Of a stretch of DNA of 64,000 nt, positions 7,304 through 44,921 are shown one piece after another. Under the pieces are notes generated by a model. That model saw only the letters and a program-made list of their open reading frames with translations, did no database searches and was not told the DNA's origin. The stretch is from Candidatus Taylorbacteria bacterium RIFCSPLOWO2_01_FULL_48_100 (GTDB lineage: Bacteria > Patescibacteriota > Minisyncoccia > Phycocordibacterales > UBA10002): NCBI GenBank assembly GCA_001821135.1, contig MHSA01000021.1:3956-67955 (forward strand), written 5' to 3'. The position numbers and the translations under genes are program-made. Position 1 is the stretch's first letter. Each line of letters begins with the position of its first letter.

Positions 7304-7315
7304 TACGATTGAACA

Positions 7316-9875: not shown

Positions 9876-9881
9876 AAAGGT

Positions 9882-10955: not shown

Positions 10956-10965
10956 GTTGCTTTCA

Positions 10966-12376: not shown

Positions 12377-12383
12377 AGAAATT

Positions 12384-14305: not shown

Positions 14306-14309
14306 AAAA

Positions 14310-15045: not shown

Positions 15046-15048
15046 AAA

Positions 15049-15100
15049 GTAAATATACGAATATACAAATTATACGAATGATACGAATGTCTACGAATAA
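15049..15100. repeat. R2 element, left arm only
   Basis: atatacgaatatacaaattatacgaatgatacgaatgtctacgaataaaa. It lies immediately upstream of the 14419-15045 start. The matching right arm is at 15493-15540, with the GxxExxY gene between the two arms. Confidence 0.7.
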
Positions 15101-15107
15101 AACTATA

Positions 15108-15524: not shown

Positions 15525-15540
15525 TCGTATATTGGTATTA
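15493..15540. repeat. R2 element, right arm only
   Basis: ctattagtagacattagtagattagtattcattcgtatattggtatta. Together with 15049-15100 it forms one palindrome interrupted by the GxxExxY gene. Confidence 0.7.
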
Positions 15541-15945: not shown

Positions 15946-15952
15946 ATGCGTT

Positions 15953-16062
15953 TTATACCAATATACTAATGTTACTAATGATACGAATGTCTACGAATAA
16001 AAAATCTCTGTTTCCATTTGTAGTCATTGGTAGATTGGTATGCATTCGTATATTGGTATTAT
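15953..16062. repeat. R2 palindromic element, full copy; supplies the TAA stop of the 16059-17138 ORF
   Basis: ataccaatatactaatgttactaatgatacgaatgtctacgaataaaa | aatctctgtttcc | atttgtagtcattggtagattggtatgcattcgtatattggtatta. Confidence 0.8.
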
Positions 16063-19023: not shown

Positions 19024-19029
19024 AAGTGA

Positions 19030-21195: not shown

Positions 21196-21288
21196 AATTC
21201 GCCTTGCGCTTTCGCGCGGCGTCTTCCGTGCCTATATTATATGTGGTTGGACAGTCAGATGGAAGTGGAAAACATTATTGCAAACCCA

Positions 21289-21410
21289 TCTCGCCCTTAT
21301 CATAAGGGGGAGTACCCGAGCGAAGCGAGGGGGAGGGGGTCTAACACAGAAACAAACAACCCCTCCGCCTCGCGGACTCGGCACCTCCACTTAGGAAAAG
21401 GGCAGGAGGT
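21289..21410 (+). repeat. R1 GC-rich structured repeat, copy 2
   Basis: tctcgcccttatcataagggggagtacccgagcgaagcgagggggagggggt…cccctccgcctcgcggactcggcacctccacttaggaaaagggcaggagg. Located between the 21416-22402 gene's 3' end and the 19030-21195 gene's start. Confidence 0.7.
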
Positions 21411-21415
21411 AAAAT

Positions 21416-22402
21416 CTAAATTCCAGATGTCGCTCTCCATAACGCATAGCCGTTTTCGTTTTCATTGTATGAGATGCCACGCGTTTCTAGAAAATTACGT
21501 AGCGCCGTAAGCGATTCTCCGAGGCGCGGCGCAGCATCCAAGTAGCGCGCAATCGCCGACACTGTTTTGATGGGGTCGTCTAATGCAACACTCATACCGC
21601 GAATACTCCCCCCTATTTCCATTGCTGTATTTGCAAAACGCAAATGCACGGCGAGCGCGCTTTGTGGAACTGATATTTTCATAGCCGCTTTTCCGAGATT
21701 GTTGTACGCAAGCGAAATCGGCGTTAGGTTCGCAAGGTCAAGCCGCGCGGTCTCTTGGTTCGGGTCTTGTATTGCACGCTCAAAAACCGCGAGTTCGTTC
21801 TCGCGCGACGGCCACGGCTTTTTGAGCACAGCGCCGAGCGTGTTTCCGTACGCGCGAAGCGCGCTTTCATTTTCTTCATTGAATATTTCTACATCTTTCT
21901 CCGTAAATAGTTGCGGGGCTTCCTCCGGAACGCTTGCCGACACGGTGTCTATAATTTTCGCAATTTCATTTTGCGAAAGCGGCAACCCTTCTTGCCTAGA
22001 TGATAGGTATGTAGCAAACAGTTCGCGCGCGAACCGTTCCGTATCGGGAATGTCTTTTTTCGCTTGCGGATTCACCTTTACGGCGATAGTTGCGGAATCA
22101 AGCAAGGCGTCTGCGCCGGCAATTAGCGGATTTCTCCCGCTTTTTATTTCCTCCGCGTCCCCCATTCCATCTACATCTGTATCCGGATTCAGCGGGTCAG
22201 TACGCCATAGTTCCTCCTCCCAGTCCTTCAAGCCGTCTTTATCGGAGTCGGCAATCAAAGCGGCGGAGCCGAGCGCGTCTGCCGGCGTTTTTGCTTGCGC
22301 AGATATTTCCTCTCCTTGGTTTTTATACTCGCCATATACAATAAAGCCGCCGAGTCCAGCAAGGACAGAAAGCGAAAAAACAAGAAAAGAGTGTTTGCGC
22401 AT
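21416..22402 (-). CDS. Secreted protein with thrombospondin-type-3-like Ca-binding Asp repeats
   Basis: Signal peptide. Repeats of the form DSDKDGLKDWEE, DPLNPDTDVDGMGDAEE. Confidence 0.4.
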   Translation of the reverse strand: MRKHSFLVFSLSVLAGLGGFIVYGEYKNQGEEISAQAKTPADALGSAALIADSDKDGLKDWEEELWRTDPLNPDTDVDGMGDAEEIKSGRNPLIAGADALLDSATIAVKVNPQAKKDIPDTERFARELFATYLSSRQEGLPLSQNEIAKIIDTVSASVPEEAPQLFTEKDVEIFNEENESALRAYGNTLGAVLKKPWPSRENELAVFERAIQDPNQETARLDLANLTPISLAYNNLGKAAMKISVPQSALAVHLRFANTAMEIGGSIRGMSVALDDPIKTVSAIARYLDAAPRLGESLTALRNFLETRGISYNENENGYALWRATSGI

Positions 22403-23391: not shown

Positions 23392-23450
23392 GTAGATAAA
23401 CATACGAATATACGAATGATACGAATCTGCGAATGGCTACGAATAATACA
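23391..23450. repeat. R2 element, left-arm half copy (overlaps the last codons of rsmA)
   Basis: agataaacatacgaatatacgaatgatacgaatctgcgaatggctacgaataatac. Confidence 0.6.
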
Positions 23451-24219
23451 AAGACAAACACCCCCATTGTGCAAGTGAAACATCCTCTGCGCGCGCGTTT
23501 TTTTCTACGCCGCATTTTTCTAGCATATCGGGAGTTATGCCTAAATTTGACGCGAGCAATTTGCGCGGATGCGCAAATCCTTTCTTGAGAACCGCAAAGA
23601 ATCTTTCTTCCGCAAAGTCAGCAAAAAACTTCTTTGATATACCCGATATTTTAAGAATCGCCGAATCCACCTTTGGCGTGGGCGAAAACGAGCCCGCTTT
23701 TACTGTGCCGATATATTTTGGTGTTCCGTAGCATTTTACGCTTATGGAAAGAATGGATTCTTTGTTTACCCCGCGTAGCCTTGGCGAAATGGGACCGGCA
23801 ACAATCCGTTTCGCAACCTCTTTTTGTAAAAGGAGAATCATCATGCTCGGTTGCATTTCGCTTTGCAGAAATTTTCGGAGAAATTGTCCGGTAATATAAT
23901 AAGGGATATTGGCGACTATTTTATAAGGAAACGGCTCGATTTTTTCAAGATCTAAAATATCGCAATGAATAAGTTCTAACTTTCCAGACGCAATTTCCTT
24001 CGCAAATCTTTTTTGCAAGACAGGAATCAGGTGCGAGTCCTTTTCTACCGCAACGACACGCCCGGCGCGTTCAAGAAGGAGCGCGGTCAAAACACCTTCA
24101 CCTGGTCCAACTTCCAGCACGGTGTCGGTCGGAACAAGCTCTGCCGCCGCGACTATTTTTTCTAACGCGCCGCGGTTTCGTAAGAAATGCTGGCCCAATG
24201 ATTTTTTACTACGAATCAT
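23437..24219 (-). CDS. rsmA: 16S rRNA (adenine1518/1519-N6)-dimethyltransferase
   Basis: Starts MIRSKKSLGQHFLRNRGALEKIV…VLEVGPGEGVLT, the canonical KsgA N-terminus and SAM-binding motif. The track's upstream extension (MLTIFIRIYLYISMHSYIGI) is a translated R2 repeat, so the start was moved to 24219. Confidence 0.85.
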   Translation of the reverse strand: MIRSKKSLGQHFLRNRGALEKIVAAAELVPTDTVLEVGPGEGVLTALLLERAGRVVAVEKDSHLIPVLQKRFAKEIASGKLELIHCDILDLEKIEPFPYKIVANIPYYITGQFLRKFLQSEMQPSMMILLLQKEVAKRIVAGPISPRLRGVNKESILSISVKCYGTPKYIGTVKAGSFSPTPKVDSAILKISGISKKFFADFAEERFFAVLKKGFAHPRKLLASNLGITPDMLEKCGVEKNARAEDVSLAQWGCLSLYYS

Positions 24220-24325
24220 AATACCAATATACGAATGCATACTAATATACAAATAGATACGAATAAAGATAGTGAGCATTCGTAGTCATTCGTATACATT
24301 CGTACCATTTGTAGATTGGTATATA
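24220..24325. repeat. R2 palindromic element, full copy; directly upstream of the rsmA start and encoding the last ~14 aa and stop of uvrD
   Basis: aataccaatatacgaatgcatactaatatacaaatagatacgaataaagatagtgagcattcgtagtcattcgtatacattcgtaccatttgtagattggtatatatc. The uvrD C-terminus …DIYQSTNGTNVYE* is read from the right arm. Confidence 0.75.
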
Positions 24326-26196
24326 TCTGCTTCCAGCAGATTTTCAGGAATATCAAAAATAAACTCGGAAGGCAAATTTACTTGCCGCGAACCGAACACA
24401 CTCCGCGCGCCCGCGTACGACAAGAATAATTTTTTGCGTGCGCGCGTGAGCGCCACATAGAAGAGTCGCCGCTCCTCCTCGGATTCCTCTTCTGTAATTT
24501 TGTCCGCATACAACCGAGCGTGAGGGAAAAGCCCGTCTTCAAGACCTGTAATGAACACAGTATCAAACTCAAGCCCTTTTGCCGCGTGTACCGTCATAAG
24601 CCGCACGGCATTTTTTTCTTCTTTCAACTCGTCTTGGTCGCTTTGGAGTGCCGCGTCTGCAAGGAATTGTTCCAATGCTTCGCGCCGTTCAATTCCGTTG
24701 TAACGAGTTGAAAAAGAAATAAGTTCGCGGATGTTTAGAAGCCGTTCTTCGTCTTCCCCGTCGCCATCTTTCAGTGCTTTTTCAAGCCCGCTTTCGGTTA
24801 AGACAAACTTGAGCGCGATGGATAGCGGCTCGGTTTCCAGTTTTTTCTTTATACGCGCGAGTAGCGCGCGGAATGCGGCGATTTTCGTGCGCGTTCCTAG
24901 GGTTATTCCACTTTCTTGTTTCGCGAGTATTTTGAGAAGCGTTACTTTACCGATACCGCGCGTTGGGACATTGATAATGCGTGCAAAGTCAGCGGTATCC
25001 GATTCGCTTAACGCCGCGCGGACATACGAAATAATGTCCTTCACCTCTTTTCGTTCAAAAAACCGCACGCCAATAACCTGATACGGAATATCAGCACCCA
25101 TAAATGCTTCTTCAAGTGCGCGGCTTTGGAAATTGGCGCGGAACAGCACAGCAATTTCTTTCGGTTCTGCCCCACCAGCAATCAATTCGCGCGATTTCTC
25201 TGCGACAAATTGCGCTTCGTGCGCCTCGTCAAACCCAGCAAACAGGTCAATTTTCTCTCCCCCTGAATTTTTCGTAAAGAGCGTTTTTTCCCGCCGATGC
25301 TTGTTCTTTTCAATCACGCGATTTGCGGCATCAAGAATCGTTTGCGTGGAGCGGTAATTTTCTTGGAGCGTTACCACTTTTGCATTCGGCCAGTCCTTTT
25401 CAAACCCCATAATATTTTTCATGCTCGCCCCGCGCCATTGGTAAATATTCTGGTCCACATCCCCCACAACTGCGATGTTTCTGTGCGCCTCCGCGAGCAG
25501 GCGCGCAATGTCGTACTGTACTCGGTTGGTGTCTTGATATTCGTCTATGTGTAGATATTTCCACTGTGTCTGATACGCCTCGCGCACGCCAGTTTCTTTT
25601 TTTAAAAGCAAAGCGGTCTTGAGGAGTAGGTCGTCAAAGTCCAGCGCTTTTTCTTCTGTAAGTATTTTTTCGTACGCGTCCCACACGCGCGACACGACAC
25701 GGGGGAAAAAATCGCTTGCGCGCTCCGCAAACTCATCTGCTGTAACACCCTCTCCTTTTTGTCGGCTGATGGCGCCAAGGATTTTCGGCGGTTCAAAATT
25801 CTTCGGGTCAAAACCAGCGATTTTAGTCGCTTGTTTTATCGCGCGTATGGAATCGCCTCGGTCAAAAATGGTAAAGCGTGGCGAAAGCCCCGCGCGTGTC
25901 GCATTGTCGCGCAAAATACGAACACCAAGAGAGTGAAATGTTGAAATAAACGGCAATTCCGTAACATCTGAAAGCAAGTTGCTAACTCTGTTTCGCATCT
26001 CTTGCGCCGCTTTATTTGTGAATGTAATCGCAAGAATAGATGACGGCTCAACACCGGTTTTTATTAAATGCAAAATGCGGTGCGCAATCACGCGCGTCTT
26101 CCCAGCACCCGCACCAGCGATAATCAAAAGTGGTCCGTCGCGGTGTTCCACCGCCTCACGCTGGCGCGGGTTCAATTCATCAAGATAAGACATCAA
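24286..26196 (-). CDS. UvrD/PcrA/Rep-family ATP-dependent DNA helicase
   Basis: 636 aa. N-terminal LNPRQREAVEHRDGPLLIIAGAGAGKTRV (helicase motif I) plus downstream SF1 helicase motifs. Confidence 0.85.
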   Translation of the reverse strand: MMSYLDELNPRQREAVEHRDGPLLIIAGAGAGKTRVIAHRILHLIKTGVEPSSILAITFTNKAAQEMRNRVSNLLSDVTELPFISTFHSLGVRILRDNATRAGLSPRFTIFDRGDSIRAIKQATKIAGFDPKNFEPPKILGAISRQKGEGVTADEFAERASDFFPRVVSRVWDAYEKILTEEKALDFDDLLLKTALLLKKETGVREAYQTQWKYLHIDEYQDTNRVQYDIARLLAEAHRNIAVVGDVDQNIYQWRGASMKNIMGFEKDWPNAKVVTLQENYRSTQTILDAANRVIEKNKHRREKTLFTKNSGGEKIDLFAGFDEAHEAQFVAEKSRELIAGGAEPKEIAVLFRANFQSRALEEAFMGADIPYQVIGVRFFERKEVKDIISYVRAALSESDTADFARIINVPTRGIGKVTLLKILAKQESGITLGTRTKIAAFRALLARIKKKLETEPLSIALKFVLTESGLEKALKDGDGEDEERLLNIRELISFSTRYNGIERREALEQFLADAALQSDQDELKEEKNAVRLMTVHAAKGLEFDTVFITGLEDGLFPHARLYADKITEEESEEERRLFYVALTRARKKLFLSYAGARSVFGSRQVNLPSEFIFDIPENLLEADIYQSTNGTNVYE

Positions 26197-28550: not shown

Positions 28551-29237
28551 TTATTTCAGCCCGAGCAGATTTTTTGCAATTCGCGGCACTTCAGCGCGAA
28601 AATAGCTTTTTATATCCTCCCATGTCATGTCAAAAAAGAGCGTGGGCATAAGGTCGTTTTCCGCATCATCAAAATAAGTCATGCTTTTTATGATGTGGTG
28701 ATAGTTATGCGCCACCGTAGGATACTGACGCGGCAACTTTTCAACGACTGATTCAAGCGGCGCGACATTGTTTGCATACCAGTACAAATCCACAAAATCG
28801 CGCTTGCGTCCGCGCTGGCTCATTGCGATAATTTTCATTACGGCGATGTCGTCTTTATCAAGAACGGCAACCGCCCCATATTTCAATGGTGGCACCACAG
28901 GGACAAAAAATGGATATGCGATAAAACTAATTTTTGCTTTACAAAGCGTCCCGTACACCGTTCCTTCTTTTACGATTTTGCCCTGCCAGATGCGATTGTC
29001 TGGAAAATGCCGTGTTATTTCGGCTGGAGCGAAGGTTTTCTCTTGCGTAAAGAAATCAAGGTCAACCGATTGCCGATGCCCAACTTGGAGCGCGAGCGCG
29101 GTTCCGCCAGCAAGATACCATTTTTCTTCTTCAAGCCAGGATTCTTTGCGCGCATACTCAAGAGCTTTTTGCGTTGACCGCGGAAGCGCTTCAAGTTTTG
29201 GCGTCCATTCGTTCATGTTGATAGCATTAAATTCCAA
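28551..29237 (-). CDS. Predicted nucleotidyltransferase (Pol-beta-superfamily minimal NTase motif; AbiEii-like toxin candidate)
   Basis: YLAGGTALALQVGHRQSVDLDFF fits the hG[GS]…DhD NTase signature. It is paralogous to 31035-31652. Its start overlaps the small upstream ORF. Confidence 0.4.
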   Translation of the reverse strand: MEFNAINMNEWTPKLEALPRSTQKALEYARKESWLEEEKWYLAGGTALALQVGHRQSVDLDFFTQEKTFAPAEITRHFPDNRIWQGKIVKEGTVYGTLCKAKISFIAYPFFVPVVPPLKYGAVAVLDKDDIAVMKIIAMSQRGRKRDFVDLYWYANNVAPLESVVEKLPRQYPTVAHNYHHIIKSMTYFDDAENDLMPTLFFDMTWEDIKSYFRAEVPRIAKNLLGLK

Positions 29238-30754: not shown

Positions 30755-31045
30755 ATGAAAGAGAACAGGGGCGTTTTTATACAAAACAAATTACCCAATT
30801 CATTTCGTCCGCTTTTGTGGTCCTTAAAATGGGAGGATGTGGATGTTGACAAAGATAAAAGTGATATTATTCTCGCCGCTGTTAATGAGGGAACTCTTGA
30901 ACAATGGCGCTGGATTATTAGAATGTATGGGCGGGAAGCAATACGGGAAACGCTTGCGAATCGTCTTGCTACAGAATTTCATCCAGAATCCGGTAACTTA
31001 GCAAAAGTTGTCTTTGACTTGCCGAAATTATCATATGCACGATGA
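30755..31045 (+). CDS. Small 96-aa protein paired with the second NTase (paralog of 29213-29452)
   Basis: Same conserved pattern as the other small partner. Directly precedes and overlaps the second NTase ORF. Confidence 0.3.
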   Translation: MKENRGVFIQNKLPNSFRPLLWSLKWEDVDVDKDKSDIILAAVNEGTLEQWRWIIRMYGREAIRETLANRLATEFHPESGNLAKVVFDLPKLSYAR

Positions 31046-31652
31046 GGTTTTAACAAAGTCCGCGGCGGCGCTTCTTCCGTCAATTGTTCGTTTTAGTGAT
31101 TTCTACCTTGCCGGCGGTACGGCGCTCGCCTTACAGATTGGACACAGGCGTTCGGTTGATTTTGACTTGTTTTCAGAAAAAACGCTTCCCGCAGAATTGC
31201 TCCCGCGTGTAAAGCGCGTATGCGCCCCACTGTCAGTTGTTGTTACATATAGTTCTACGGAACAACTCAATGTTCTTATCGGCGGCGTTAAGACGACCTT
31301 TTTGTTTTTTCCTTACCCGGTTATTAATCCGCCAGTCGCGTATCGCGGTATTTCAATCGCGAGCATACGCGAAATTGCCGCAATGAAAGCATTTGCGGTC
31401 GGCAAGCGGCTCTCGTTCAAGGATTATGTTGATTGGTATTTTATGTTGAAAGAAAAATATGTAACGCTTCCAGATGTTATAGCTCTCGCTCAAAAGAAAT
31501 TCGGCGGCGATTTCAATGACCGGCTGTTTCTCGGGCAACTCGTGTCGCTTGCCGATGTTCCTATTCAGTCAATAGATTTCTTGCGCGCCGCGGTTGATAA
31601 AAAAGAAATCACGGAGTTTCTTGAGTATTCTGTAAAGACATTCGCACTCTAA
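31035..31652 (+). CDS. Predicted nucleotidyltransferase, paralog of 28551-29237
   Basis: YLAGGTALALQIGHRRSVDFDLF. The start was moved to MHDEV… because the track's upstream Met overlaps the partner gene. Confidence 0.4.
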   Translation: MHDEVLTKSAAALLPSIVRFSDFYLAGGTALALQIGHRRSVDFDLFSEKTLPAELLPRVKRVCAPLSVVVTYSSTEQLNVLIGGVKTTFLFFPYPVINPPVAYRGISIASIREIAAMKAFAVGKRLSFKDYVDWYFMLKEKYVTLPDVIALAQKKFGGDFNDRLFLGQLVSLADVPIQSIDFLRAAVDKKEITEFLEYSVKTFAL

Positions 31653-37594: not shown

Positions 37595-39487
37595 CTACTT
37601 CCTCCCCCACCTGTTTTCGGACTCTTGTATGAGACGACCGATAACTGCCGCCGCTTTTTCGGCGGTGCCATTTTTACCGGTGATGAAGACGCGCCCATCG
37701 TCTTCAATATCAATCGCGCTTACCCCAGTCCTTTCTTTTATTTCATTAATCGTCTTGCCCCCGCTTCCGATAATCATTCCAATCTGCTCTTTTTTCACCT
37801 GTATAATCAAAATCTTCGGCGCAACGGGCGAAATATCTGCACGCGGCGCGGCGATTTCTTTTTCCATTACATCTAGAATCTTTTCCCGCGCCGCGCGCGC
37901 TTTTTCAAACGCTTCTGCAAGTATTGCAATCGGCACACCTTCTACTTTCACATCCATCTGCACCGCAGTTACGCCCGCGCGCGTGCCCGCAACTTTAAAA
38001 TCCATATCGCCGTGATGGTCTTCGGGGCCTTGAATGTCAGTGAGTATTTTATAATTTTTGTGGTCGCGCATCATCAACCCTGATGCAATTCCAGCAACGG
38101 GCGCAGAAATCGGCACTCCGCCGTCCAAGAGCGCGAGCGTTGCGCCGCACACGCTTCCCATTGAAGTAGAGCCGTTTGATGAAAACGCTTCAGATACGAG
38201 CCGTATCGTGTACGGAAACTTTTCTTGCGGAGGAATAACAGGCAAAAGCGCTTTTTCCGCCAAGGTCCCGTGGCCTATCATCCGGCGATTTTTACCTCCG
38301 AGCTTTCCCGTTTCTCCGTTAGAAAAAGGCGGAAAATTGTAATGATGTATGAAATGTTTTTTCTCTCCGTGATTTTCTATTCCATCAACCGTTTGCGAGT
38401 CCTTTGGTCCGCCCAGCGTCAAGACCGATAAAATATGCGTCCCGCCCCGGTAAAATGTCCCGGAGCCGTGCAGAATTTTAGAAAACCCGCCCGCTTGCGC
38501 GAAGAGAGGCCGCAGTTCGTCCATCCCCCTACCATCCGCGCGTTTTTCGTTTTCTATTGCTTCTGTGTGGAGAAGGTTGTTCACAGCATCCTCAAAATGC
38601 GCGCCCGCAAACGCGCCCGCATTTTTAATTTCCGCACATTTAGTTTTTACAAGATCAAGCCACTCGTTTTTTAAGTTGTTGATTGTTTCGTGTCCAGATT
38701 TTCCTGAAAACACCACTCCGTACATTTTCGGCGCGGTTTCTTTATTGAAAAGTTCTGCAATTTCTTTCGGCGATTCCGGAAACACAATCTTTTGTTTTTC
38801 TTTTCCAATTTCTTTTATTATTTTCTCCTGCCACGCCTGCAACTTCTTCATTTCTTTATTCGCTTCCTCAAGCGCGGCAATAATTGTTTTTTCAACAACT
38901 TCTCTGCCGCCGACCTCAATCATATTAATGCAATCATCTTTGCCGCACACAACAAGGTCAAGAAAGGCATGTTTCCTCGCGGAATAGATAGGATTTACCT
39001 CATAGGTCTTATCCTCACTTATTCCGATGCGCACTGCGGACACCGGTCCGTTCCACGGTATAGAAGAGGCGCTGAGCGCGAGCGAGGCGCCGATAACTCC
39101 CAAAATGTCAGGGTCGTTCTCTCCTAGCGCGAGAATTGTCGCTACTACTTGTATTTCGTTCCGAATGCGCTGGTCAAAGAGCGGGCGAATCGTACGGTCA
39201 ATAAGCCGTCCAGAAATAACCGCTTCATCAGCCGGCTTCCCTTCCCGTCGTACAAAACTGCTTCCGAGAATCTCCCCAACCGCATAAAACCGCTCCTCGT
39301 AATCAACGGTGAGCGGTAGATAATCCGTCCCTTTTTCTTCTTTTGAGATGACCGCAGTTACGAGCACTGCGGTGTCGCCACAGCGAATGAGTACCGACCC
39401 ACTCGCATTTTCCGCAAGGTCGCTAAACTCCGCGATAAGCATTTTCCCACCGACTTCAATAGAGTACTCCTTCTTCTGCATGCTCAC
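37595..39487 (-). CDS. pnp: Polyribonucleotide nucleotidyltransferase (PNPase), apparently lacking the C-terminal S1 domain
   Basis: 630 aa. Two RNase PH-like domains and a KH domain (…IGMIIGSGGKTINEIKERTGV…). The protein ends about 30 aa after the KH domain, so no S1 domain is encoded. Confidence 0.85.
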   Translation of the reverse strand: MSMQKKEYSIEVGGKMLIAEFSDLAENASGSVLIRCGDTAVLVTAVISKEEKGTDYLPLTVDYEERFYAVGEILGSSFVRREGKPADEAVISGRLIDRTIRPLFDQRIRNEIQVVATILALGENDPDILGVIGASLALSASSIPWNGPVSAVRIGISEDKTYEVNPIYSARKHAFLDLVVCGKDDCINMIEVGGREVVEKTIIAALEEANKEMKKLQAWQEKIIKEIGKEKQKIVFPESPKEIAELFNKETAPKMYGVVFSGKSGHETINNLKNEWLDLVKTKCAEIKNAGAFAGAHFEDAVNNLLHTEAIENEKRADGRGMDELRPLFAQAGGFSKILHGSGTFYRGGTHILSVLTLGGPKDSQTVDGIENHGEKKHFIHHYNFPPFSNGETGKLGGKNRRMIGHGTLAEKALLPVIPPQEKFPYTIRLVSEAFSSNGSTSMGSVCGATLALLDGGVPISAPVAGIASGLMMRDHKNYKILTDIQGPEDHHGDMDFKVAGTRAGVTAVQMDVKVEGVPIAILAEAFEKARAAREKILDVMEKEIAAPRADISPVAPKILIIQVKKEQIGMIIGSGGKTINEIKERTGVSAIDIEDDGRVFITGKNGTAEKAAAVIGRLIQESENRWGRK

Positions 39488-39501: not shown

Positions 39502-40020
39502 TTATCTTTTCCCATACCCCATCAAGTATTTGCGCGGAGTGTCATCAAGGTCGGTAAACTCGTCCGCCGCCTCAATAAGTTTCGCAGAGGTTGATTTTCC
39601 AAACGCAACAATTTCCACCTGGCACCCCTCGTTTATTTTTAAGTATTCTACAAGCGGAATGAAGTCGCCGTCGCCGGAGAGAATAATCACGGCATCCACC
39701 TTCGGCGCAAGTTTCACTGCATCTATCGCAAGCCCGACATCCCAGTCCGCTTTTTTCGCGCCGCTTCCGAATATCTGCAAGGGCTTCGTCTTTGCCTCAA
39801 TGCCGACTTTTGCAAGTGCCTCAAAAAAACTTTTTTCTTCCCCGCTTTCGGTCGTAATCACATACGCAACCGCGCGTATAAGCGAGCGCCCCGCGAGCGC
39901 GTCCTTCACTACCTGCCCGAAGTTCACATTCGCGCGGTAGAGATTTTTCGCGCAATGGTATAAGTTTTGGGTATCAATAAATACCGCCACGCGCTGATTT
40001 TTGTGTTTTATAATACTCAC
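39502..40020 (-). CDS. NYN/LabA-like (PIN-like) domain protein
   Basis: …RVAVFIDTQNLYHCAKNLY…AVAYV…DWDVGLAIDAVKLA…DAVIILSGDGDFIPLV… matches the LabA/NYN pattern. Located between rpsO and pnp. Confidence 0.6.
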   Translation of the reverse strand: MSIIKHKNQRVAVFIDTQNLYHCAKNLYRANVNFGQVVKDALAGRSLIRAVAYVITTESGEEKSFFEALAKVGIEAKTKPLQIFGSGAKKADWDVGLAIDAVKLAPKVDAVIILSGDGDFIPLVEYLKINEGCQVEIVAFGKSTSAKLIEAADEFTDLDDTPRKYLMGYGKR

Positions 40021-40283
40021 TTTTTAAGTTCCAATTTGCGAACAATTCCATTATACCTCTTCGGATGCCTTTTTTGTAAATAGCGCAAGTGCGCTTGCCT
40101 GTCGGCAACCATACCAAGTAGTCCCCTGCGCGAGTGAGTATCTTTCTTATGTGTCTTGAGATGTCTCGTCAACTCTTCAATTCGGCGCGACAAAATTCCG
40201 ACCTGCACTTCCGCAGACCCTGTATCCTTCTCATGCATTCCGACTTCCTTGATAATACTTTGCTTTTTTCGCCTGGTTATCAT
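40017..40283 (-). CDS. rpsO: 30S ribosomal protein S15
   Basis: …KDTGSAEVQVGILSRRIEELTRHLKTHKKDTHSRRGLLGMVADRQAHLRYLQKRHPKRY… matches the uS15 signature. The start was moved to MITRRKK. Canonical rpsO-pnp arrangement. Confidence 0.8.
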   Translation of the reverse strand: MITRRKKQSIIKEVGMHEKDTGSAEVQVGILSRRIEELTRHLKTHKKDTHSRRGLLGMVADRQAHLRYLQKRHPKRYNGIVRKLELKK

Positions 40284-40392: not shown

Positions 40393-40590
40393 TAAAGGAC
40401 ATTTCATAAAGGACATTTGCGAATGTCCTTTATGAATAATCAAATGTCCATTAGAAATGTCCTTTACGAATGTCCTTTATAACCACTTGAATGTCCTTTA
40501 GAAGTGTTTCCTTGTGCATTTTTAGGTGGTTTATCCACAGTTCGTGTCCTTTACACAAATGTCCTTTATAAATTAGAATGTCCTTTAGAC
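40393..40590. repeat. Iteron-like array of ~10 AATGTCCTTTA / TAAAGGACATT motifs (family R3) upstream of rpsO; includes one perfect DnaA-box 9-mer TTATCCACA at 40530-40538
   Basis: aaaggacatttcataaaggacatttgcgaatgtcctttatgaataatcaaatgtccattagaaatgtcctttacgaatgtcctttataaccacttgaatgtcctttag…gtgtcctttacacaaatgtcctttataaattagaatgtcctttag. Confidence 0.7.
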
Positions 40591-40900
40591 ACTTTTTAGT
40601 TCTTTGAAACCTTTTTCCAACACCAGCGCAGAACTTTTTGTTTTTATTGGTCTATCCTTCCGCGCTGATGTTACACGGGAAACATTTCCGGCTTTGCTAC
40701 CCAGAAAATATATTCTCACTAAAACTTCTTGGAATAGTATTTTTCTAGGCACTTCTGATTTTTGTTTCCCCATCTCCTTTACCCACCACATTTGTGTGGC
40801 GTATGGGTTCACCGCCTAGTCGCGGAGTGGTCGAAACACCCACTCAAAATGACTGGGCGGTTTTTATTGCCCCCACACTTGTTTCACATGTAACATGTGG

Positions 40901-42511
40901 CTATTTAACCCAGTATTTTCCACGGATTTCCTTGATTACCGTTTCTTCTATCTCAACTTTCCTTTCTTTGCCTTTTTTACCGAGGTTTTCAATTTCCTTA
41001 TCAGGGAGCGCTGCGAGTTCGGTAACCCTTTTTTCCAAGTATTCTTTCTTGTTTCTTAACGGATCTTCAAGCACCTCCTCAAGTAACGCATGTAAAATGA
41101 AACCAATTTTTGGGCTTGGTTGTAGTTTTGTAATTTCTATAATCTCTCCTCCTTTTATTTTCAACATTCCTACCGATATTGGGTCGTGCATCACCTCCTC
41201 TATGAGCGAATGGTATTTGCGAAGGCGATAAGGGCTTTCTTTTGGCCTGCCGGTTCCTATACGGTCGCATGTGCGCACATTCATTAAGTCCCAGATATTT
41301 TCCTTACCTACATTCATAAGAAGCCTCCGAACTGCTGATTGTGTTATAACCTCAGTATCGGAAAAAAACATATGCCAGCGCACTAATTTAGCAACTTTAT
41401 CAGTTAGTTTCACGGGAAACTTTAGCCGCTCAAGTATTTTTACCGCCGTTCTAGTTCCCACAACATCGTGTCCGTAAAAGGTCCAATCGTTCTTTTCTTC
41501 CGACCACCTGCGTGTCTCTGGCTTTGAGATGTCGTGTAACAATGCGGCAAGCCGCACTTCTATTGGAAATTCTTTTTTAGCGGAGTGTGCAACCGTTCTT
41601 AATAGGTGCTCTCCGACACCAAAAGAGTGCGCTTTGTTTTGTTTCACATGAAACGATTGCTCTAATTCAGGTATAAAATGCTGTAAAAGCCCTAGTTTGC
41701 TACACATAGTAATACCCTCCATCGGCCGCTCTGACATTACAATCTTTGTGAATTCATCGCGAATCCTTTCCGGTGCTATCTTCTTAAGGAGTTCGTTATT
41801 TTTGAATATTGCTTCAGATGTTTCATTTTCAATCATAAAACCAAGTTCTGATGCTATGCGTACGGCTCGTAAGAGGCGTAGTCCGTCTTCTGAGAAGCGT
41901 TCTATGGGGTTACCAACGGTTTTTACCACGCCTTTTTTGATATCTGACTGTCCTTTATATGGGTCAGTGATGTGTCCTTTATAAGTTTTATAATGTCCTT
42001 TAGAATTATAAAGGACATTTGTTTTGTTATAAACGACATTTGTATTTTCCAAATGTCCTTTATCATGTCCGTTAGAAATGTCCGTTAGAATGTCCTTTAT
42101 AACCTTGACTGTCGGTTCAATTTCTAGCGCAATAGCGTTTATGGTGAAGTCGCGGCGCTTAAGGTCGTCCTCAAGATTTTTACTGAAAGACACCGAGTCG
42201 GGTCGTCTGCTATCTGAATATACCCCTTCAAGCCGATATGGAGTTACTTCAACCACTTTAAGCGTAGGATCTTCTGAATTTGTAACAACACCAACCGTAC
42301 CGTACTCGTTTTCGTAAAAGCTTTCCTTGAAGATTCTTTGTATTTTTTCCGGCGTTGCGTTGGTGGTAATGTCCCAGTCGGACGGTTTCCTGCCTATAAG
42401 TAAATCTCGGACGCACCCACCAACCAAATGCGCTTCAAACCCCGCTTTCTCAAGGGTTTCTGAAACATCTGCAACTTGATTCGGAATCTCAAAAGTATTG
42501 TTTTTAATCAT
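40901..42511 (-). CDS. cca: CCA-adding tRNA nucleotidyltransferase with C-terminal HD domain; carries an in-frame insertion encoded by an R3 repeat array
   Basis: N-terminal …GGCVRDLLIGRKPSDWDITT… (polbeta NTase head) and …RDFTINAIA… motifs. A ~45-aa insert (…ISNGHDKGHLENTNVVYNKTNVLYNSKGHYKTYKGHITDPYKGQ…) maps exactly onto the AATGTCCTTTA array at 41947-42100. Confidence 0.75.
   Translation of the reverse strand: MIKNNTFEIPNQVADVSETLEKAGFEAHLVGGCVRDLLIGRKPSDWDITTNATPEKIQRIFKESFYENEYGTVGVVTNSEDPTLKVVEVTPYRLEGVYSDSRRPDSVSFSKNLEDDLKRRDFTINAIALEIEPTVKVIKDILTDISNGHDKGHLENTNVVYNKTNVLYNSKGHYKTYKGHITDPYKGQSDIKKGVVKTVGNPIERFSEDGLRLLRAVRIASELGFMIENETSEAIFKNNELLKKIAPERIRDEFTKIVMSERPMEGITMCSKLGLLQHFIPELEQSFHVKQNKAHSFGVGEHLLRTVAHSAKKEFPIEVRLAALLHDISKPETRRWSEEKNDWTFYGHDVVGTRTAVKILERLKFPVKLTDKVAKLVRWHMFFSDTEVITQSAVRRLLMNVGKENIWDLMNVRTCDRIGTGRPKESPYRLRKYHSLIEEVMHDPISVGMLKIKGGEIIEITKLQPSPKIGFILHALLEEVLEDPLRNKKEYLEKRVTELAALPDKEIENLGKKGKERKVEIEETVIKEIRGKYWVK
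41947..42100. repeat. R3 AATGTCCTTTA-motif array (~9 units) lying inside the cca coding sequence, in frame
   Basis: tgtcctttatatgggtcagtgatgtgtcctttataagttttataatgtcctttagaattataaaggacatttgttttgttataaacgacatttgtattttccaaatgtcctttatcatgtccgttagaaatgtccgttagaatgtcctttat. Confidence 0.7.
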
Positions 42512-42525
42512 GTAAGAAATTAAAA

Positions 42526-42596
42526 TGCGGGTACGGAGAATCGAACTCCGATCTCGTCCTTGGCAAGGACGCGTTCTGCCACTAAACCATACCCGC
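42526..42596 (-). tRNA. tRNA-Gly (anticodon GCC)
   Basis: The minus-strand sequence GCGGGTATGGTTTAGTGGCAGAACGCGTCCTTGCCAAGGACGAGATCGGAGTTCGATTCTCCGTACCCGCA folds as a cloverleaf, with anticodon loop CTTGCCAAG. Coordinates are approximate, within 2 nt. Confidence 0.75.
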
Positions 42597-42650
42597 GTTC
42601 ACGAAATAATAGCAGAAATATATACGGTGCGCTATGATTGAGTGTGCTGT

Positions 42651-42722
42651 GCGCCCGTGGTGAAATGGATATCACAACGGTCTTCGGAACCGTTGTTCCG
42701 GGTTCGAATCCTGGCGGGCGCG
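42651..42722 (+). tRNA. tRNA-Arg (anticodon TCG)
   Basis: GCGCCCGTGGTGAAATGGATATCACAACGGTCTTCGGAACCGTTGTTCCGGGTTCGAATCCTGGCGGGCGCG. Anticodon stem ACGGT/ACCGT with loop CTTCGGA. Confidence 0.7.
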
Positions 42723-42769
42723 TCCTATAGAATAGATGAAAATGTGGATAAGTCGGTGGATATGTGTAT

Positions 42770-42895
42770 AACGGACATTTGGTTTTATGTCAGTGTCCGA
42801 GAGGAAATGTTGAGAAATACGGATATTTTGTAAAAGACACTTCTTTTCTTAATAAAGGACATTTATGCCGAGAGGAAAAACAGGACATTTGCGAG
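42770..42895. repeat. R3 motif cluster (3 units) spanning the yraN start
   Basis: acggacattt…aataaaggacatttATGccgagaggaaaaacaggacatttgcg. Confidence 0.5.
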
Positions 42896-43281
42896 TGGGA
42901 AAGGTGGGGGAGGAGGTTGCGGCGAAATATCTGACGCAAAACGGCTTTGAGATAAAAGAGCGAAATTATTCTAAAAAATGGGGGGAATTGGATATTGTCG
43001 CGCTTAAGGACAAAAAACTGCATTTTGTGGAAGTGAAAACGGTTTCATGGGACAGTAGTGGGGAAGAGGCGGGTAGGCGAGTTAGTGAATATCGTCCGGA
43101 AGACAATATGCATCCGCAAAAGCTTAAACGGCTAGCGCGCGTTACGGAGTCGTATTTAGCAAGCAAACAGCGCGCGCAGGGTATGCCGTGGCAATTTGAT
43201 GTCGCCGCCGTGTTTTTAGATATTGAGGAAAGGCGGGCGAAAGTGAAAATGCTGTGGGACCTCATTCTGCCCGCCCGATAA
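42865..43281 (+). CDS. yraN: YraN-family (UPF0102) predicted endonuclease
   Basis: 138 aa. …GEEVAAKYLTQNGFEIKERNYSKKWGELDIVALKDKKLHFVEVKT… matches the YraN/UPF0102 pattern. Confidence 0.65.
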   Translation: MPRGKTGHLRVGKVGEEVAAKYLTQNGFEIKERNYSKKWGELDIVALKDKKLHFVEVKTVSWDSSGEEAGRRVSEYRPEDNMHPQKLKRLARVTESYLASKQRAQGMPWQFDVAAVFLDIEERRAKVKMLWDLILPAR

Positions 43282-43417: not shown

Positions 43418-44014
43418 CTAGAATTGCAGGAGCAGTTGTCGCCGTGGACGCCACTTGAAGAATATCTCGCGTCCATGTCCTTCTAGTTCCCGATAGCCGT
43501 ATTTGTGAAAAAGTTGTCTTTCAATAGTGCATTCAAAGAGGTATCGGTTGTATTGCGCTTTGATGCCCGGCCACTTCTCGGATGGTACAGGGTCGCGGCG
43601 CTCTACACCTAAGCATTCCGACAAATGGTAGAGTGTTGGGTCGCAGAAGTTGAGTTCTTCCGCAAGGCAACGCATAGCACCCTCGCGCGGTGCCTCATCA
43701 CGCTTTAAGGTCTCCGCAATTCCGTTGAAGTTCCTGCGACGCAATACTGTACCGTTAGAAGATGTCTGTCTGTCCTCATACAATTCAAGCCACTCTCTCT
43801 TGAATTTATGGATAACAATTACGATTGCGGCGTGTACTTCAACAACAAGGTCGTTGTTTTCGCCGTCGCGTAGGAAGAACTTATCCTCAGTTGCATAGCG
43901 CACGAAATCCTCAAGTGACCGATGTTTTCCCGTGCCCCATTTCTGGAGCGGGACGCTGTGTCGTTTTAAAATCTCCAGTATTTCTCGGTTTTCAAGAATT
44001 ATTGGGGTTTTCAT
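43418..44014 (-). CDS. Hypothetical 198-aa protein
   Basis: Clean ORF with no TM. I tested a NUDIX-box fit (…GIAETLKRDEAPREGAMRCLAEELNF) and found it imperfect. Left unassigned. Confidence 0.35.
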   Translation of the reverse strand: MKTPIILENREILEILKRHSVPLQKWGTGKHRSLEDFVRYATEDKFFLRDGENNDLVVEVHAAIVIVIHKFKREWLELYEDRQTSSNGTVLRRRNFNGIAETLKRDEAPREGAMRCLAEELNFCDPTLYHLSECLGVERRDPVPSEKWPGIKAQYNRYLFECTIERQLFHKYGYRELEGHGREIFFKWRPRRQLLLQF

Positions 44015-44123: not shown

Positions 44124-44921
44124 CTACTTGTGCAGTTCCGCATCCAGCCGCTTCGCCTCCGCCCACGCAAGTTCATAAATCTTTTTCATCGCATCGGCAA
44201 TCTCCGCGCTTTCAATAATCACACCGAGTTTTTCTTTCCAAGAGGCAATCATCACCTTGTTGTCGTAGATGTTAATTTCAGGAGAAAAATAATATTTATC
44301 GGGCGACACAAACGCAATCTCGCGTTTTTCTTCCACATCATGCGCTCCGCGCTCAATGCCGATGGGCGTTTTCGGAACAATCGCGCGAATCGCGATTCCT
44401 TTTCCAGCCCGCCGTTTATAGTAAGCAGGGAAGTAGTTAGGGAGTCCCTTGTGCATATCGTCTACATTCGCGTATGCGCGTATCGGTTCAGTGGACGAGA
44501 GCGTGTCTTCATAGACATTCTTCAACCCATCCGCGCCTTCATAAAACTTGATGCGCGGGCGGTTTTGCGTCGTCGCTATCGCACGAAGTTCAGGGAGAAG
44601 CGTTTCTGCTTTGCTTATCCGCTCCTCTGCTGTTCCAACTTCTTTTTTCAAATACACAACCACCGCTTCCGGCGGCTCCGCCGCATATTCTGATTTCGGC
44701 TCTTTGCCTGAGATATTGACCAACCCCTTGTTCACCAAAGAATCCAAAATATCGTAGCCAGTTGTGCGGTTGAGTCCTGCCTTGCGCGCAATCTGCGCGA
44801 CCGTCCCGCGACCCATTTCAAGGAGCGCGATATATACACCCGCTTCTTTTTCTCCAAGACCAAGTCCTTGCAAAGTGAGCGATAGTTGTTCGTTCTTCAT
44901 AACGCCATCATACACCCCCAC
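44124..44921 (-). CDS. TrmB-family transcriptional regulator (N-terminal wHTH)
   Basis: N-terminus …LTLQGLGLGEKEAGVYIALLEMGRGTVAQIARKAGLNRTTGYDILDSLVNKGLV… is a TrmB-type winged HTH. C-terminal effector-like domain. Confidence 0.55.
   Translation of the reverse strand: MGVYDGVMKNEQLSLTLQGLGLGEKEAGVYIALLEMGRGTVAQIARKAGLNRTTGYDILDSLVNKGLVNISGKEPKSEYAAEPPEAVVVYLKKEVGTAEERISKAETLLPELRAIATTQNRPRIKFYEGADGLKNVYEDTLSSTEPIRAYANVDDMHKGLPNYFPAYYKRRAGKGIAIRAIVPKTPIGIERGAHDVEEKREIAFVSPDKYYFSPEINIYDNKVMIASWKEKLGVIIESAEIADAMKKIYELAWAEAKRLDAELHK

Follow-up and report, generated by a model that had tools for sequence, protein, structure and literature searches.

Within the 64-kb stretch of DNA analysed here (the window), an 11-bp motif, AATGTCCTTTA, forms three arrays that lie beside rpsO, inside cca and at the start of yraN. 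The motif is not a word common throughout the genome, nor does it mark a replication origin; many Parcubacteria carry it at two conserved loci, cca and an unannotated gene divergent from ftsK-recA. The reading that we favour, and to which sequence comparison leads us to give about an even chance, is that the three arrays are binding-site clusters for a Parcubacteria-specific DNA-binding protein that would gate a DnaA-linked promoter, the sites within cca having been amplified. To our knowledge, next to nothing is known of how members of the Candidate Phyla Radiation (CPR) regulate their genes or handle their chromosomes, because almost none have been cultured. The analysis offers a concrete and testable pair, the 11-bp site and an unannotated protein family, together with two conserved target loci and a DnaA-linked predicted promoter for a small RNA.

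Organization of the 11-mer arrays

The window holds 19 matches to AATGTCCTTTA with at most one mismatch, against 1.33 ± 1.15 expected (100 shuffles, maximum 6), and the core 8-mer, AAAGGACA, has 18 matches against 2.3 expected, 16 of which fall in one 2.5-kb locus. Since 18 of the 19 matches to the full motif are confined to positions 40393-42863, the sole outlier lying at 25033, the motif is not the merely abundant word that a preliminary description of this DNA had named as a possibility. Array 1 (40393..40587), flanked by rpsO and the 3' side of cca, comprises ten copies, two on the minus strand (starts 40393 and 40407) and eight on the plus strand (40422, 40443, 40456, 40469, 40490, 40543, 40558 and 40577); nine of these have at most one mismatch, while GTGTCCTTTA at 40543 has two. 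Its sequence is identical across eight independent assemblies of the species, with no polymorphism. Array 2 (41947..42099), inside cca, comprises nine copies in both orientations, with plus-strand starts at 41947, 41971, 41992, 42052, 42064, 42077 and 42089 and minus-strand starts at 42009 and 42030; seven have at most one mismatch and two, at 41971 and 42064, have two mismatches. Array 3 (42769..42892) contains copies at 42769 (TAACGGACATT) and 42853 (TAAAGGACATT) and a partial copy, AGGACATTT, at ~42882, within codons 6-9 of yraN. The preliminary description had reported about ten copies in both orientations upstream of rpsO, about nine in frame within cca and three near the yraN start, and all three counts are borne out.

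Arrays 1 and 2 have a 33-nt higher-order unit in common. The spacing between copies peaks at 12-13 and 21 bp and is otherwise irregular, with mixed orientations, and spacings of ~13 and 20-21 bp agree with the -35/spacer/-10 geometry of the predicted promoter described below. Non-random, local and conserved short sites in both orientations are typical of the targets of DNA-binding proteins, in keeping with the operator-type array proposed earlier. With nine to ten copies per cluster and two to three loci per genome, the arrangement is more centromere- or iteron-like than an ordinary operator.

A predicted DnaA-linked promoter beside array 1

A perfect DnaA box, TTATCCACA, occupies 40531..40539 on the plus strand, flanked by inverted motif copies and 3-4 nt upstream of the copy that supplies the predicted -35 element. 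The box had been seen before and is indeed integral to the rpsO-side array, although its coordinates had been given one base off. The predicted sigma-70-type promoter (40550..40579, plus strand, 10/12 consensus matches) is built on three motif copies that cover its -35, spacer and -10: the -35 hexamer TTTACA is the 3' end of the copy at 40543, the 18-nt spacer contains the copy at 40558, and the AAT of the -10 hexamer TAGAAT starts the copy at 40577. Visual comparison with 16 other cca loci shows this geometry in most of them, L079 and L106 fitting poorly. Each module has one DnaA box, at about -45 of the predicted promoter. In an anchored view of 17 cca loci an equivalent box stands at the equivalent place in 14, at a fixed distance of 2-4 nt from the motif, and L050 and L061 also have a box. 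Perfect DnaA boxes are enriched 8.6-fold within 300 bp of motif matches. In a three-way alignment of the window with L061 and L050, the DnaA box is invariant (100% of columns), and invariant columns make up 65% of the motif and 44% of the spacers; this greater conservation of motif columns than of spacers points to selection on the sites.

The conserved predicted promoter would drive a ~280-nt, C/U-rich non-coding transcript (40586..40868, plus strand) convergent with cca and ending at a strong predicted intrinsic terminator, with a stem at 40811-40861 and a T-run at 40861-40868, that faces cca. The candidate transcript region has a fold z-score of -4.26 and is conserved in L061, L050, L205, L206 and L207, where 13 base pairs are kept by two-sided changes; indels across relatives disrupt every reading frame in it, and a GTTCTTT/GTCCTTT element is conserved 10-25 nt into the predicted transcript. 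An Rfam search with the candidate transcript gave no match. The transcript cannot be aligned between classes, and the conserved item may therefore be the act of transcription or the promoter alone. The whole module, written as < DnaA box > >, -10, 250-450 nt of non-coding sequence and a terminator facing the cca stop, is found in 13 loci selected by the motif and in all six cca loci picked by protein only (L122-L124 and L205-L207), and is kept in cca loci whose proteins share 50-80% identity.

On the left of array 1, rpsO (Ribosomal_S15; 40017..40283, minus strand) has its own predicted promoter at 40322-40294. On the other side of cca, yraN (42865..43281, plus strand) encodes a nuclease-like protein of the UPF0102 family, and the motif copy at 42853 abuts its ATG at 42865 and serves as Shine-Dalgarno sequence too. 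Directly upstream of array 3, on the minus strand, a perfect DnaA box, TGTGGATAA (42743-42751), and a near-box (42763-42771) form a block (42743..42771) that is conserved in L061 and overlapped by a possible yraN promoter (-10 TATAAC), recognized by inspection only. Domain matches agree with the names given earlier to rpsO, yraN and the gene for a NYN protein. The NYN/LabA protein had been put forward as a candidate binder of the motif, a role that its RNase-type domain does not favour, synteny being its sole link to the motif; the winged-helix protein introduced below suits that role far better.

Motif copies within cca and the 46-residue insert

The cca gene (40901..42511, minus strand) is an intact ORF for a class II CCA-adding enzyme of 536 residues with an HD domain, matching the Pfam families PolyA_pol, PolyA_pol_RNAbd, HD and tRNA_NucTran2_2. 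The nucleotidyltransferase head carries GGxVRD, RRD and D..G..D motifs and an EDxxR block; the invariant residues include G31, G32, V34, R35, D36, R119, R120, D121, G187, E208, D209 and R212, and D183 is nearly invariant. Relative to P0016-P0018 (491 residues, ~76% identity), which lack it, the protein has a lineage-specific in-frame insert of 46 residues (residues 132-177; 41981..42118, minus strand) between motif B (RRDFTIN) and the D-P-Y-K-G-Q-x-D-I block. The insert is present in P0002-P0015 with a varying number of KGH/KGQ/NVLY-type units, giving proteins of 509-561 residues. The AlphaFold model of the enzyme, with a mean pLDDT of 84, is confident outside the insert, whereas residues 135-175 have pLDDT <50 and are predicted to be disordered. 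The comparison of orthologues and the structure prediction, both proposed in the preliminary description, thus support its claim of a repeat-derived in-frame loop: the ~45-residue insertion measures 46 residues, the quoted peptide lies inside the ORF, and the loop, predicted to be disordered, has no counterpart in close relatives.

In the cca frame the copies of array 2 code for KGQ, KGH, NGH or TDI and the inverted copies for NVLY or NVVY, and across genes the 11-mer yields KGH, KDI, TDI, NVLY or MSF, depending on the frame. In other lineages two copies within cca are ordinary codons, in S-K-G-H-L and in G-I/L-K-D-I (G-x-K-D-I). Cores occupy the matching cca position in two of three cca loci picked without motif bias, in-gene motif positions are maintained across cca genes 50-58% identical, and the insert-less relative L205 has one core in cca, yet keeps both arrays 1 and 3. 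The array in cca did not originate as a foreign insertion; the aligned genes identify the insert as a clade-specific expansion of two pre-existing, codon-borne copies. The codon choice at S-K-G-H-L and G-x-K-D-I, beside motif C, would preserve the in-cca sites, and in the window's clade the pair was probably amplified through local duplication, or through conversion from the arrays on either side, which left nine copies and gave the enzyme a disordered surface loop of 46 residues that it appears to tolerate. Read in this manner, cca provides a clear case of DNA-level selection for putative binding sites inside an essential gene, where selection on sites shapes codon choice and, once the sites are amplified, the protein itself. 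It suggests that protein insertions typical of the CPR can originate from regulatory DNA and not from protein-level selection.

Distribution of the motif and a candidate binding protein

A scan for exact motif pairs, with one genome per species, gave 108 stretches, a set biased toward loci with exact pairs. Among the 80 stretches listed, 26 are clearly non-Patescibacteria by title and the rest are mostly Patescibacteria. The 108 motif-selected loci contain cca in 29 cases, xth in 23, yraN, adjoining the arrays, in 18, the gene for a winged-helix protein in 14 and ftsK in 13. Arrays near tuf in some other loci show no promoter geometry for any gene. The in-gene copies favour TAAAGGACATT on the sense strand by ~3:1 (92:25, and 77:26 in a second count), and the bias upstream of the winged-helix gene is 35:15; the ~3:1 bias is unexpected under a purely DNA-level model.

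The winged-helix gene, divergent from ftsK-(small gene)-recA, is unannotated. Its product is predicted to start with a four-helix bundle and to end in a winged helix, with ~70 disordered residues as a linker between the two, an architecture that matches no curated family. The invariant residues map to the recognition helix and wing (EKTxQRE...KRWS.Y), and ArsR/MarR/BlaI-type repressors are weak structural matches to the model. Among 80 metagenome loci found solely by homology to this protein, mostly at ~30% identity, the density of the 11-mer (at most one mismatch) is 2.44 per kb over the 300 bp upstream of the gene, 1.87 per kb within it and 0.02 per kb elsewhere, so that the motif is ~100-fold enriched within and just upstream of the gene. 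The 8-mer core is found in 78 of the 80 loci, the commonest 8-mers upstream of the gene being AAAAGACA, AAAGGACA and TAAAGGAC, and DnaA boxes are enriched in these loci too, at 0.19 per kb. Because the motif is enriched in and upstream of the gene in loci chosen by homology, we infer that the winged-helix protein binds the 11-mer. The co-occurrence makes the gene a target of the motif's binder; that its product is the binder does not follow. The window itself contains no gene for this protein, and the candidate is known from the other loci.

Proposed mechanism and rival explanations

In the mechanism that we propose, oligomers formed through the bundle, with loosely tethered winged helices, would bind 11-bp sites at any spacing and orientation, and dense irregular arrays would be high-avidity targets. 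At the cca locus two inverted copies surround the DnaA box, and those that follow make up the -35, occupy the spacer and reach up to the -10 and the start site. Motif copies overlie the promoter core elements, and occupancy should therefore shut or gate the DnaA-linked promoter, presumably by repression. The copies on the yraN promoter and ribosome-binding site and those in cca may be auxiliary operators, possibly looping the 2.5-kb locus. Repressor operators similarly overlap -35, spacer and -10, with extra sites both upstream and within a downstream gene, lac O2 in lacZ and gal OI in galE being auxiliary sites in coding sequence. Unlike operators of the lac and gal type, the clusters here hold up to ten sites with free spacing and orientation, are composite with a DnaA box, reside in conserved codons and have been amplified into a protein insert. 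Autoregulated repressors of the ArsR, MarR or BlaI type have sites at the regulator's own promoter and a winged-helix domain that reads DNA, as the candidate does, although its bundle/linker/winged-helix architecture lies outside the curated families. As in the DnaA-regulated promoters of mioC, dnaA and sda, a perfect DnaA box is fixed just upstream of the -35; in contrast to these, sites for a second factor lie on both sides of the box, and the predicted product is a short non-coding RNA.

The arrays could instead belong to a centromere-like or chromosome-organizing site, an unlikely reading in our judgement, in which they would join with parS-like palindromes in a nucleoprotein hub close to the origin, the winged-helix protein would have a centromere-binding or architectural role, and repression of the promoter would follow as a side effect. 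Clusters of nine to ten sites in both orientations, at few loci per genome, recall the ~ten short repeats and small autoregulating DNA-binding proteins of parC/ParR, tubC/TubR and the archaeal AspA centromeres. The putative binder gene adjoins ftsK and contains motif sites; a chromosomal parS is likewise located inside the coding sequence of spo0J and is origin-proximal, and the cca locus lies 35 kb from dnaA-dnaN, a distance taken from this genome alone. Four parS-like palindromes with the consensus TGTTTCACGTGAAACA coexist with the arrays (40669..41655), against 0.39 expected in 64 kb. They lie at 40669, within the candidate transcript, at 40880, in the interval that separates its terminator from the cca stop, and at 41406 and 41640, inside cca, where they code for KFPVKL and SFHVKQ. 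Such sites number 3-5 per cca locus picked by protein only and, at other loci, show a 7-fold enrichment close to motif arrays, with none in 411 kb of winged-helix loci. The AATGTCCTTTA motif was itself considered as a parS and rejected, being asymmetric and unrelated to the 16-bp palindrome. Against the centromere, no signature of ParA, ParB or another partition NTPase was found in the window or in any other locus compared, the spacing is irregular, and the site at 40669 may be merely an RNA hairpin of the transcript. The exact overlap with -35, spacer and -10 favours transcription control, the link to a promoter being stronger than that to segregation. A wider proposal, which we regard as doubtful, combines both aspects: the cca locus would be a chromosome-control hub in which the parS-like cluster, the DnaA box and the winged-helix arrays link the state of DnaA and the handling of the chromosome to a small RNA, with the sites dictating cca codons and, in one clade, the 46-residue loop.

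The sense-strand bias of TAAAGGACATT in genes and upstream of the winged-helix gene, and the yraN copy that doubles as Shine-Dalgarno sequence, would suit an element acting as RNA, with UAAAGGACAUU in the cca, yraN and winged-helix mRNAs and in a read-through rpsO leader bound by an RNA-binding protein or a C/U-rich small RNA that controls translation or decay. The conserved GUUCUUU/GUCCUUU near the 5' end of the small RNA could pair with AAAGGAC, and the neighbouring genes include those for the RNA enzymes NYN, PNPase and RNase Y. We consider this improbable, since an RNA signal would explain neither a symmetric << box >> between convergent genes nor copies located upstream of the predicted start, inverted copies would mask one another in hairpins, and the constant 2-4 nt gap to the DnaA box is a feature of DNA; coding constraint alone favours the KGH and KDI frames, because TAA blocks one frame. 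Very improbable, in turn, is a plasmid-type origin with iterons, to which the preliminary description had likened the repeats, or a datA- or DARS-like locus for titrating or recycling DnaA, in which the winged-helix protein would serve as initiator or helper. Iteron origins (pSC101, P1 and F) do have 11-12-bp sites in direct and inverted orientation and sites at the promoter of their own binder, as for the putatively autoregulated winged-helix protein, and Vibrio cholerae chromosome 2 combines RctB 11/12-mers with a DnaA box, much as a perfect, conserved box adjoins the arrays here; the DnaA boxes of the winged-helix loci and a sign change of the local GC skew near 42 kb would also fit. However, a canonical origin neighbourhood is present in the window 35 kb from the arrays, with rpmH-rnpA-yidC followed by the dnaA-dnaN region at 5175-5386, whose AT-rich spacer bears three TTTTCCACA-type boxes. 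The arrays, flanked by rpsO, cca and yraN, have no adjoining initiator gene or AT-rich unwinding element and, with spacing peaks at 12-13 and 21 bp, show no obvious 22-bp phasing; they occur at several loci with promoter geometry, the single DnaA box per module sits where DnaA-regulated promoters have it, and the skew tracks gene orientation and reverses repeatedly.

A functionless repeat, whether selfish or produced by slippage and akin to elements that enter genes in frame, would account for the variable copy number of the cca insert among related species (509-561 residues), for its predicted and presumably neutral disorder, and for the common 33-nt unit, which suggests duplication or conversion. 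This is extremely unlikely given the confinement of 16 of the 18 cores of the 64 kb to one 2.5-kb locus, the positions kept across cca genes 50-58% identical, the motif columns that outconserve the spacers, the eight assemblies free of polymorphism and the lack of terminal repeats and target duplications at the arrays. A mobile in-frame repeat (RPE/MITE-like) was rejected on the clustering of cores, the identity of the assemblies and the conserved positions. The cca insert does resemble Rickettsia palindromic elements in that DNA derived from a repeat is translated and adds a surface segment to an otherwise conserved, functional protein; in contrast to those dispersed mobile elements, it appears to be a local amplification of pre-existing sites at one locus.

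Motif arrays at the cca locus

With up to one mismatch, the 11-mer AATGTCCTTTA is found 19 times in the window against 1.33 expected, and 18 of these copies are confined to 40393–42863, and its 8-mer core AAAGGACA has 18 occurrences (2.3 expected), of which 16 fall in that same 2.5 kb. The three arrays are organized as in the preliminary description, with 10 copies in the gap between rpsO and cca (array 1), 9 inside cca (array 2) and about 3 at the yraN start (array 3); the perfect DnaA box in array 1 (40531–40539) and the uninterrupted cca reading frame were likewise confirmed. The − strand carries pnp (37595–39487), a NYN-domain gene (39502–40020), rpsO (40017–40283) and, beyond a non-coding gap of about 610 bp, cca (40901–42511) and a tRNA-Gly gene (42526–42596), followed on the + strand by a tRNA-Arg gene (42650–42725) and yraN (42865–43281). 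The array region is identical across eight assemblies of the species, a set picked by identical cca protein, and no strain-level variation in copy number is present among them. The window sequence is also matched by contig MHSO01000011.1 of the Parcubacteria-type metagenome-assembled genome GCA_001822765.1, and contigs identical to it were found in several groundwater metagenomes. A DNA-damage regulon, suggested by the neighbours recA, ftsK, xth, yraN and uvrD, was rejected: neither uvrD nor dnaA has a site in front of it, and the partial motif matches in uvrD (24966–25043) are at chance level. Elsewhere in the window, several genes of toxin-antitoxin or abortive-infection type, comprising two AbiEii-type genes, an adjacent DUF6922 gene and a PemK-type toxin, are located at 28551–29237, 31008–31652 and about 46.4–46.9 kb (5619–6035 of the fetched locus L001).

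Distribution of the motif in other genomes

When one genome per species was scanned for pairs of exact motif copies no more than 30 bp apart, 108 stretches were returned, against a rough chance expectation of about two. Of the 80 stretches listed, 26 are clearly non-Patescibacteria by title and most of the others bear Patescibacteria names (Nomura-, Campbell-, Kaiser-, Adler-, Taylor- and Lloydbacteria, Paceibacterota). The non-CPR matches that were inspected were set aside as tandem repeats (L054, L058, L083 and L086) or isolated pairs. The label ‘Saccharibacteria’ on many TPA assemblies is unreliable, one locus so labelled (L061) having a cca 80% identical to that of the window, and spread is therefore claimed within Parcubacteria-like lineages only. 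Neighbouring copies on the same strand are most commonly spaced by 12–13 or 21 bp, and the extended consensus reads aaAATGTCCTTTAtAa. Perfect DnaA boxes are enriched 8.6-fold within 300 bp of the motif (32 in 111 kb versus 22 in 657 kb). Among the neighbours of the arrays in the 108 loci, one group comprises cca (29), exonuclease III (xth, 23), yraN (18) and rpsO with the NYN-domain gene (13), and a second is defined by an unannotated gene of ~300 codons, present in 14 loci and adjoining ftsK in 13. Both types of locus coexist in single genomes (L036 with L061; L037 with L065). Near tuf (L012, 2448–2481; L032, 1010–1043) arrays lie next to the hairpin of an intrinsic terminator, with a separate TTGACA promoter downstream of them, a layout that differs from the promoter geometry at cca. 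In the accessible literature, searches covering CPR regulons, LexA, parS and DnaA boxes gave no account of the motif or of the module and protein family described below, and the 11-mer and its complement retrieved unrelated primers only.

Architecture of the module preceding cca

When 13 motif-selected cca loci were oriented to the + strand of the window, all displayed the same order of elements, from inverted motif copies through to a terminator facing cca. The module opens with one or two inverted copies (TAAAGGACATT) followed by the DnaA box and 2–4 nt, after which the TTTAca part of the next motif copy constitutes the −35 element (TTTACA or TTTATA). The promoter spacer of 16–18 nt holds a second copy, and the −10 element (TAGAAT, TAAAAT, TATAAT or TACAAT) often contributes its AAT to the opening of a third. 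An AGA-type start region and 250–450 nt with no conserved reading frame follow, and the module ends in a strong hairpin and T-run a short way ahead of the stop codon of cca. The predicted promoter of the window is TTTACA-18-TAGAAT (40550–40579, + strand), which a promoter scan scored at 10 of 12 consensus matches, and the terminator comprises a stem at 40811–40861 and a T-run at 40861–40868. The same module is present in all six cca loci picked by protein identity alone, three of them on long contigs (L122–L124) and three from closer relatives (L205–L207). The usual Parcubacteria order is yraN-cca-[module]-xth-xerC/D-like recombinase-rpsO-NYN-pnp; the xth and XerC/D-type tyrosine recombinase stretch (L122, 13071–14003; L123, 13368–14300; L124, 14776–15741) is absent from the window's clade, and the module thus abuts rpsO. 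Within this clade the DnaA box is 100% invariant, compared with 65% of the motif columns and 44% of the spacers.

At array 3 the motif copy at 42769 is preceded by a perfect DnaA box (42743–42751) and a near-box; the copy at 42853 contributes the ribosome-binding site of yraN (AAGGA) and directly adjoins its ATG, and a partial copy lies within yraN codons 6–9. In other genomes motif copies are found upstream of yraN at variable distances. Beyond yraN, the − strand encodes a 198-aa protein with no family match (43418–44014) beside a TrmB-family regulator (44124–44921), and TrmB-like genes recur a few kb from cca in L123, L124 and L206 with no link to the motif.

A candidate transcript between promoter and terminator

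The predicted fold of the 286-nt stretch 40590–40875 is much better than that of shuffled controls (z = −4.26). With its own predicted promoter and strong terminator, the segment 40586–40868 (+ strand), which converges on cca, is a candidate small non-coding RNA. Five relatives can be aligned to it; among them 13 predicted pairs persist through substitution of both partners, and indels abolish any reading frame. Rfam searches at gathering and relaxed thresholds of the window and of 18 + 8 loci returned tRNAs only, giving no family for the transcript in the window or in ten other lineages, and nhmmer with the transcript of the window's clade detected no homology in other classes. These other Parcubacteria classes possess an equivalent promoter-to-terminator unit that is not alignable to that of the window. 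The stretch is treated as a putative fast-evolving small RNA, although the act of transcription alone, rather than the RNA, may be what matters.

A winged-helix protein as the candidate motif binder

The product of the gene beside ftsK has a conserved N-terminal domain (AIYLITNFLSDSEPLKWKLR...), a variable linker and the C-terminal signature EKTxQRELxxLVxxGVLKKxGEKRWSxY. Pfam and NCBIfam gave marginal HTH_DeoR and ArsR matches only, and the protein has no sequence relative among solved structures. The AlphaFold model displays a four-helix bundle at residues 30–143 (pLDDT 80–90), a disordered linker at 140–213 and then a winged helix; All Foldseek matches were weak, the targets being repressors of the ArsR/MarR/BlaI type and four-helix-bundle proteins, 2gsc and 2rld among them. 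Divergent orientation of the gene relative to ftsK-(small gene)-recA extends to family members of only ~30% identity.

The key enrichment was measured in 80 metagenome loci chosen solely by homology to this protein. The 11-mer, with up to one mismatch, reaches 2.44 per kb in the 300 bp upstream of the gene and 1.87 per kb within it, compared with 0.02 per kb in the rest of the loci, and 78 of the 80 contain the 8-mer core. The upstream copies, where the most widespread 8-mers are AAAAGACA, AAAGGACA and TAAAGGAC, lie 0–125 nt before the start codon, and those within the gene cluster in the linker and the first helix of the winged-helix domain. Such a pattern is typical of DNA-binding proteins that regulate their own gene, and we infer that the winged-helix protein binds the motif. 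An oligomerising bundle joined to the DNA-reading domain by a long flexible tether would explain the free spacing and orientation of the copies. The gene was sought for the window's own genome and was not located. The NYN/LabA protein, proposed earlier as a possible binder, was discarded, as its domain is of RNase type and it is syntenic with rpsO only. The TrmB-like regulator at 44124–44921 was rejected as a binder, being present in two of the 108 motif-selected loci and having no sites at its own gene. In the winged-helix loci perfect DnaA boxes occur at 0.19 per kb, versus about 0.03 in the background of the motif-selected loci, and a predicted promoter that follows the winged-helix gene has one near position −45 (L117, 11217; L119, 10989; L121, 10937). 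In these bacteria promoters may commonly have a DnaA box nearby.

Motif copies inside cca and the lineage-specific insert

Motif-coded residues were marked on an alignment of 23 cca genes. In lineages whose enzyme is only 50–57% identical to that of the window the copies are no insertions and code for S-K-G-H-L (tcTAAAGGACATTta) and G-I/L-K-D-I, on either side of the D-P-Y-x-G block and shortly after the RRDFTIN motif. The frame varies by gene and position, giving KGH, KDI or TDI and, when inverted, NVLY or MSF; since the same word is translated in differing frames, what is conserved is the DNA word and not a peptide. Conservation of the cca copies is biased by several loci having entered the set through those very copies; loci picked for intergenic arrays often have none inside cca, and cores occupy the same cca position in two of the three loci retrieved without motif selection.

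In the window's clade the pair of copies has become nine, with a 46-residue insert (residues 132–177). The number of KGH/KGQ/NVLY-type units differs among species, the cca proteins ranging from 509 to 561 aa, and a 33-nt higher-order unit common to the cca array and array 1 suggests that the former arose by local duplication or conversion. The orthologue comparison proposed in the preliminary description revealed that the nearest relatives lacking the insert (proteins P0016–P0018) otherwise align to the window's cca with no gap. Among these, L205 retains the DnaA box, the transcript and both flanking arrays (1 and 3), with a single core in cca, and the insert is thus a late, lineage-specific expansion. 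In the AlphaFold model of the enzyme (mean pLDDT 84) residues 135–175 fall below 50, with the catalytic head and HD domain confident. Of the two earlier suggestions, a tolerated or an exapted loop, a tolerated disordered loop is the better reading, and nothing suggests exaptation. Unrelated, non-KGH insertions in the same loop between motif B and the DPYxG block are seen in other cca orthologues, P0022, P0058 and P0082 (alignment A1, columns 233–290), so the position is generally permissive.

Operator, centromere-like and origin readings of the arrays

The most direct support, from geometry, conservation and the autoregulation pattern, is for arrays acting as operators for the winged-helix protein that would gate a DnaA-linked predicted promoter. 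A centromere-like or architectural hub is kept alive mainly by a cluster of parS-like sites (near palindrome TGTTTCACGTGAAACA), of which the window holds four against 0.39 expected: at 40669–40684, in the most conserved block of the transcript, at 40880–40895, between the terminator and the cca stop, and inside cca at 41406–41421 (coding KFPVKL) and 41640–41655 (coding SFHVKQ). These sites are 7-fold enriched near the motif arrays, and the cca loci retrieved without motif selection contain three to five each, none of them farther than about 1.5 kb from cca. The winged-helix loci have no such site in 411 kb, and the one at 40669 may be no more than a hairpin of the RNA. Such a hub would also account for the copy numbers, the few loci per genome and the in-gene sites, but the partition motor is missing, no ParA/ParB signature being present in the window or the fetched loci. 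Clusters of 3–8 parS-like sites are found at the cca locus of many Parcubacteria, also upstream of yraN. Action of the motif at the RNA level would account for the 3:1 orientation bias and the overlap with ribosome-binding sites, but leaves the symmetric layout around the DnaA box unexplained. A purely selfish repeat is argued against by the restriction of copies to the locus and by their conserved positions. In kind, the arrays are transcription-factor or centromere-type sites, a known sort; what is unusual is the composite with a DnaA box, the free spacing within arrays, the fact that codons of an essential enzyme preserve the sites, and the expansion of these into protein sequence.

The preliminary likening of the arrays to replication-origin iterons did not hold, since a canonical dnaA-dnaN origin neighbourhood (4077–8059) lies 35 kb off in the same window; its proximity and the single DnaA box per module also argue against DnaA titration. 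This neighbourhood contains dnaN (4077–5174) and dnaA (5387–6733), with rpmH-rnpA-yidC divergent on the other side of the pair, and the AT-rich spacer between the two genes (5175–5386), with a TGTGGAAAA box (5230) and two TTTTCCACA boxes (5352 and 5374), is likely oriC. GC skew was dismissed as a test of the origin because it tracks gene orientation, with repeated sign changes across the 64 kb, and cannot decide the question. The gene ksgA lies at 23437–24279. In Patescibacteria a type IV secretion cluster has been described in an origin-proximal position (bioRxiv 10.1101/2025.01.22.634366), and the run of − strand genes at 8658–22402, which adjoins dnaA, consists mostly of genes with no Pfam match and includes a TraG/VirB4-like ATPase at 12488–14305, fits such a cluster.
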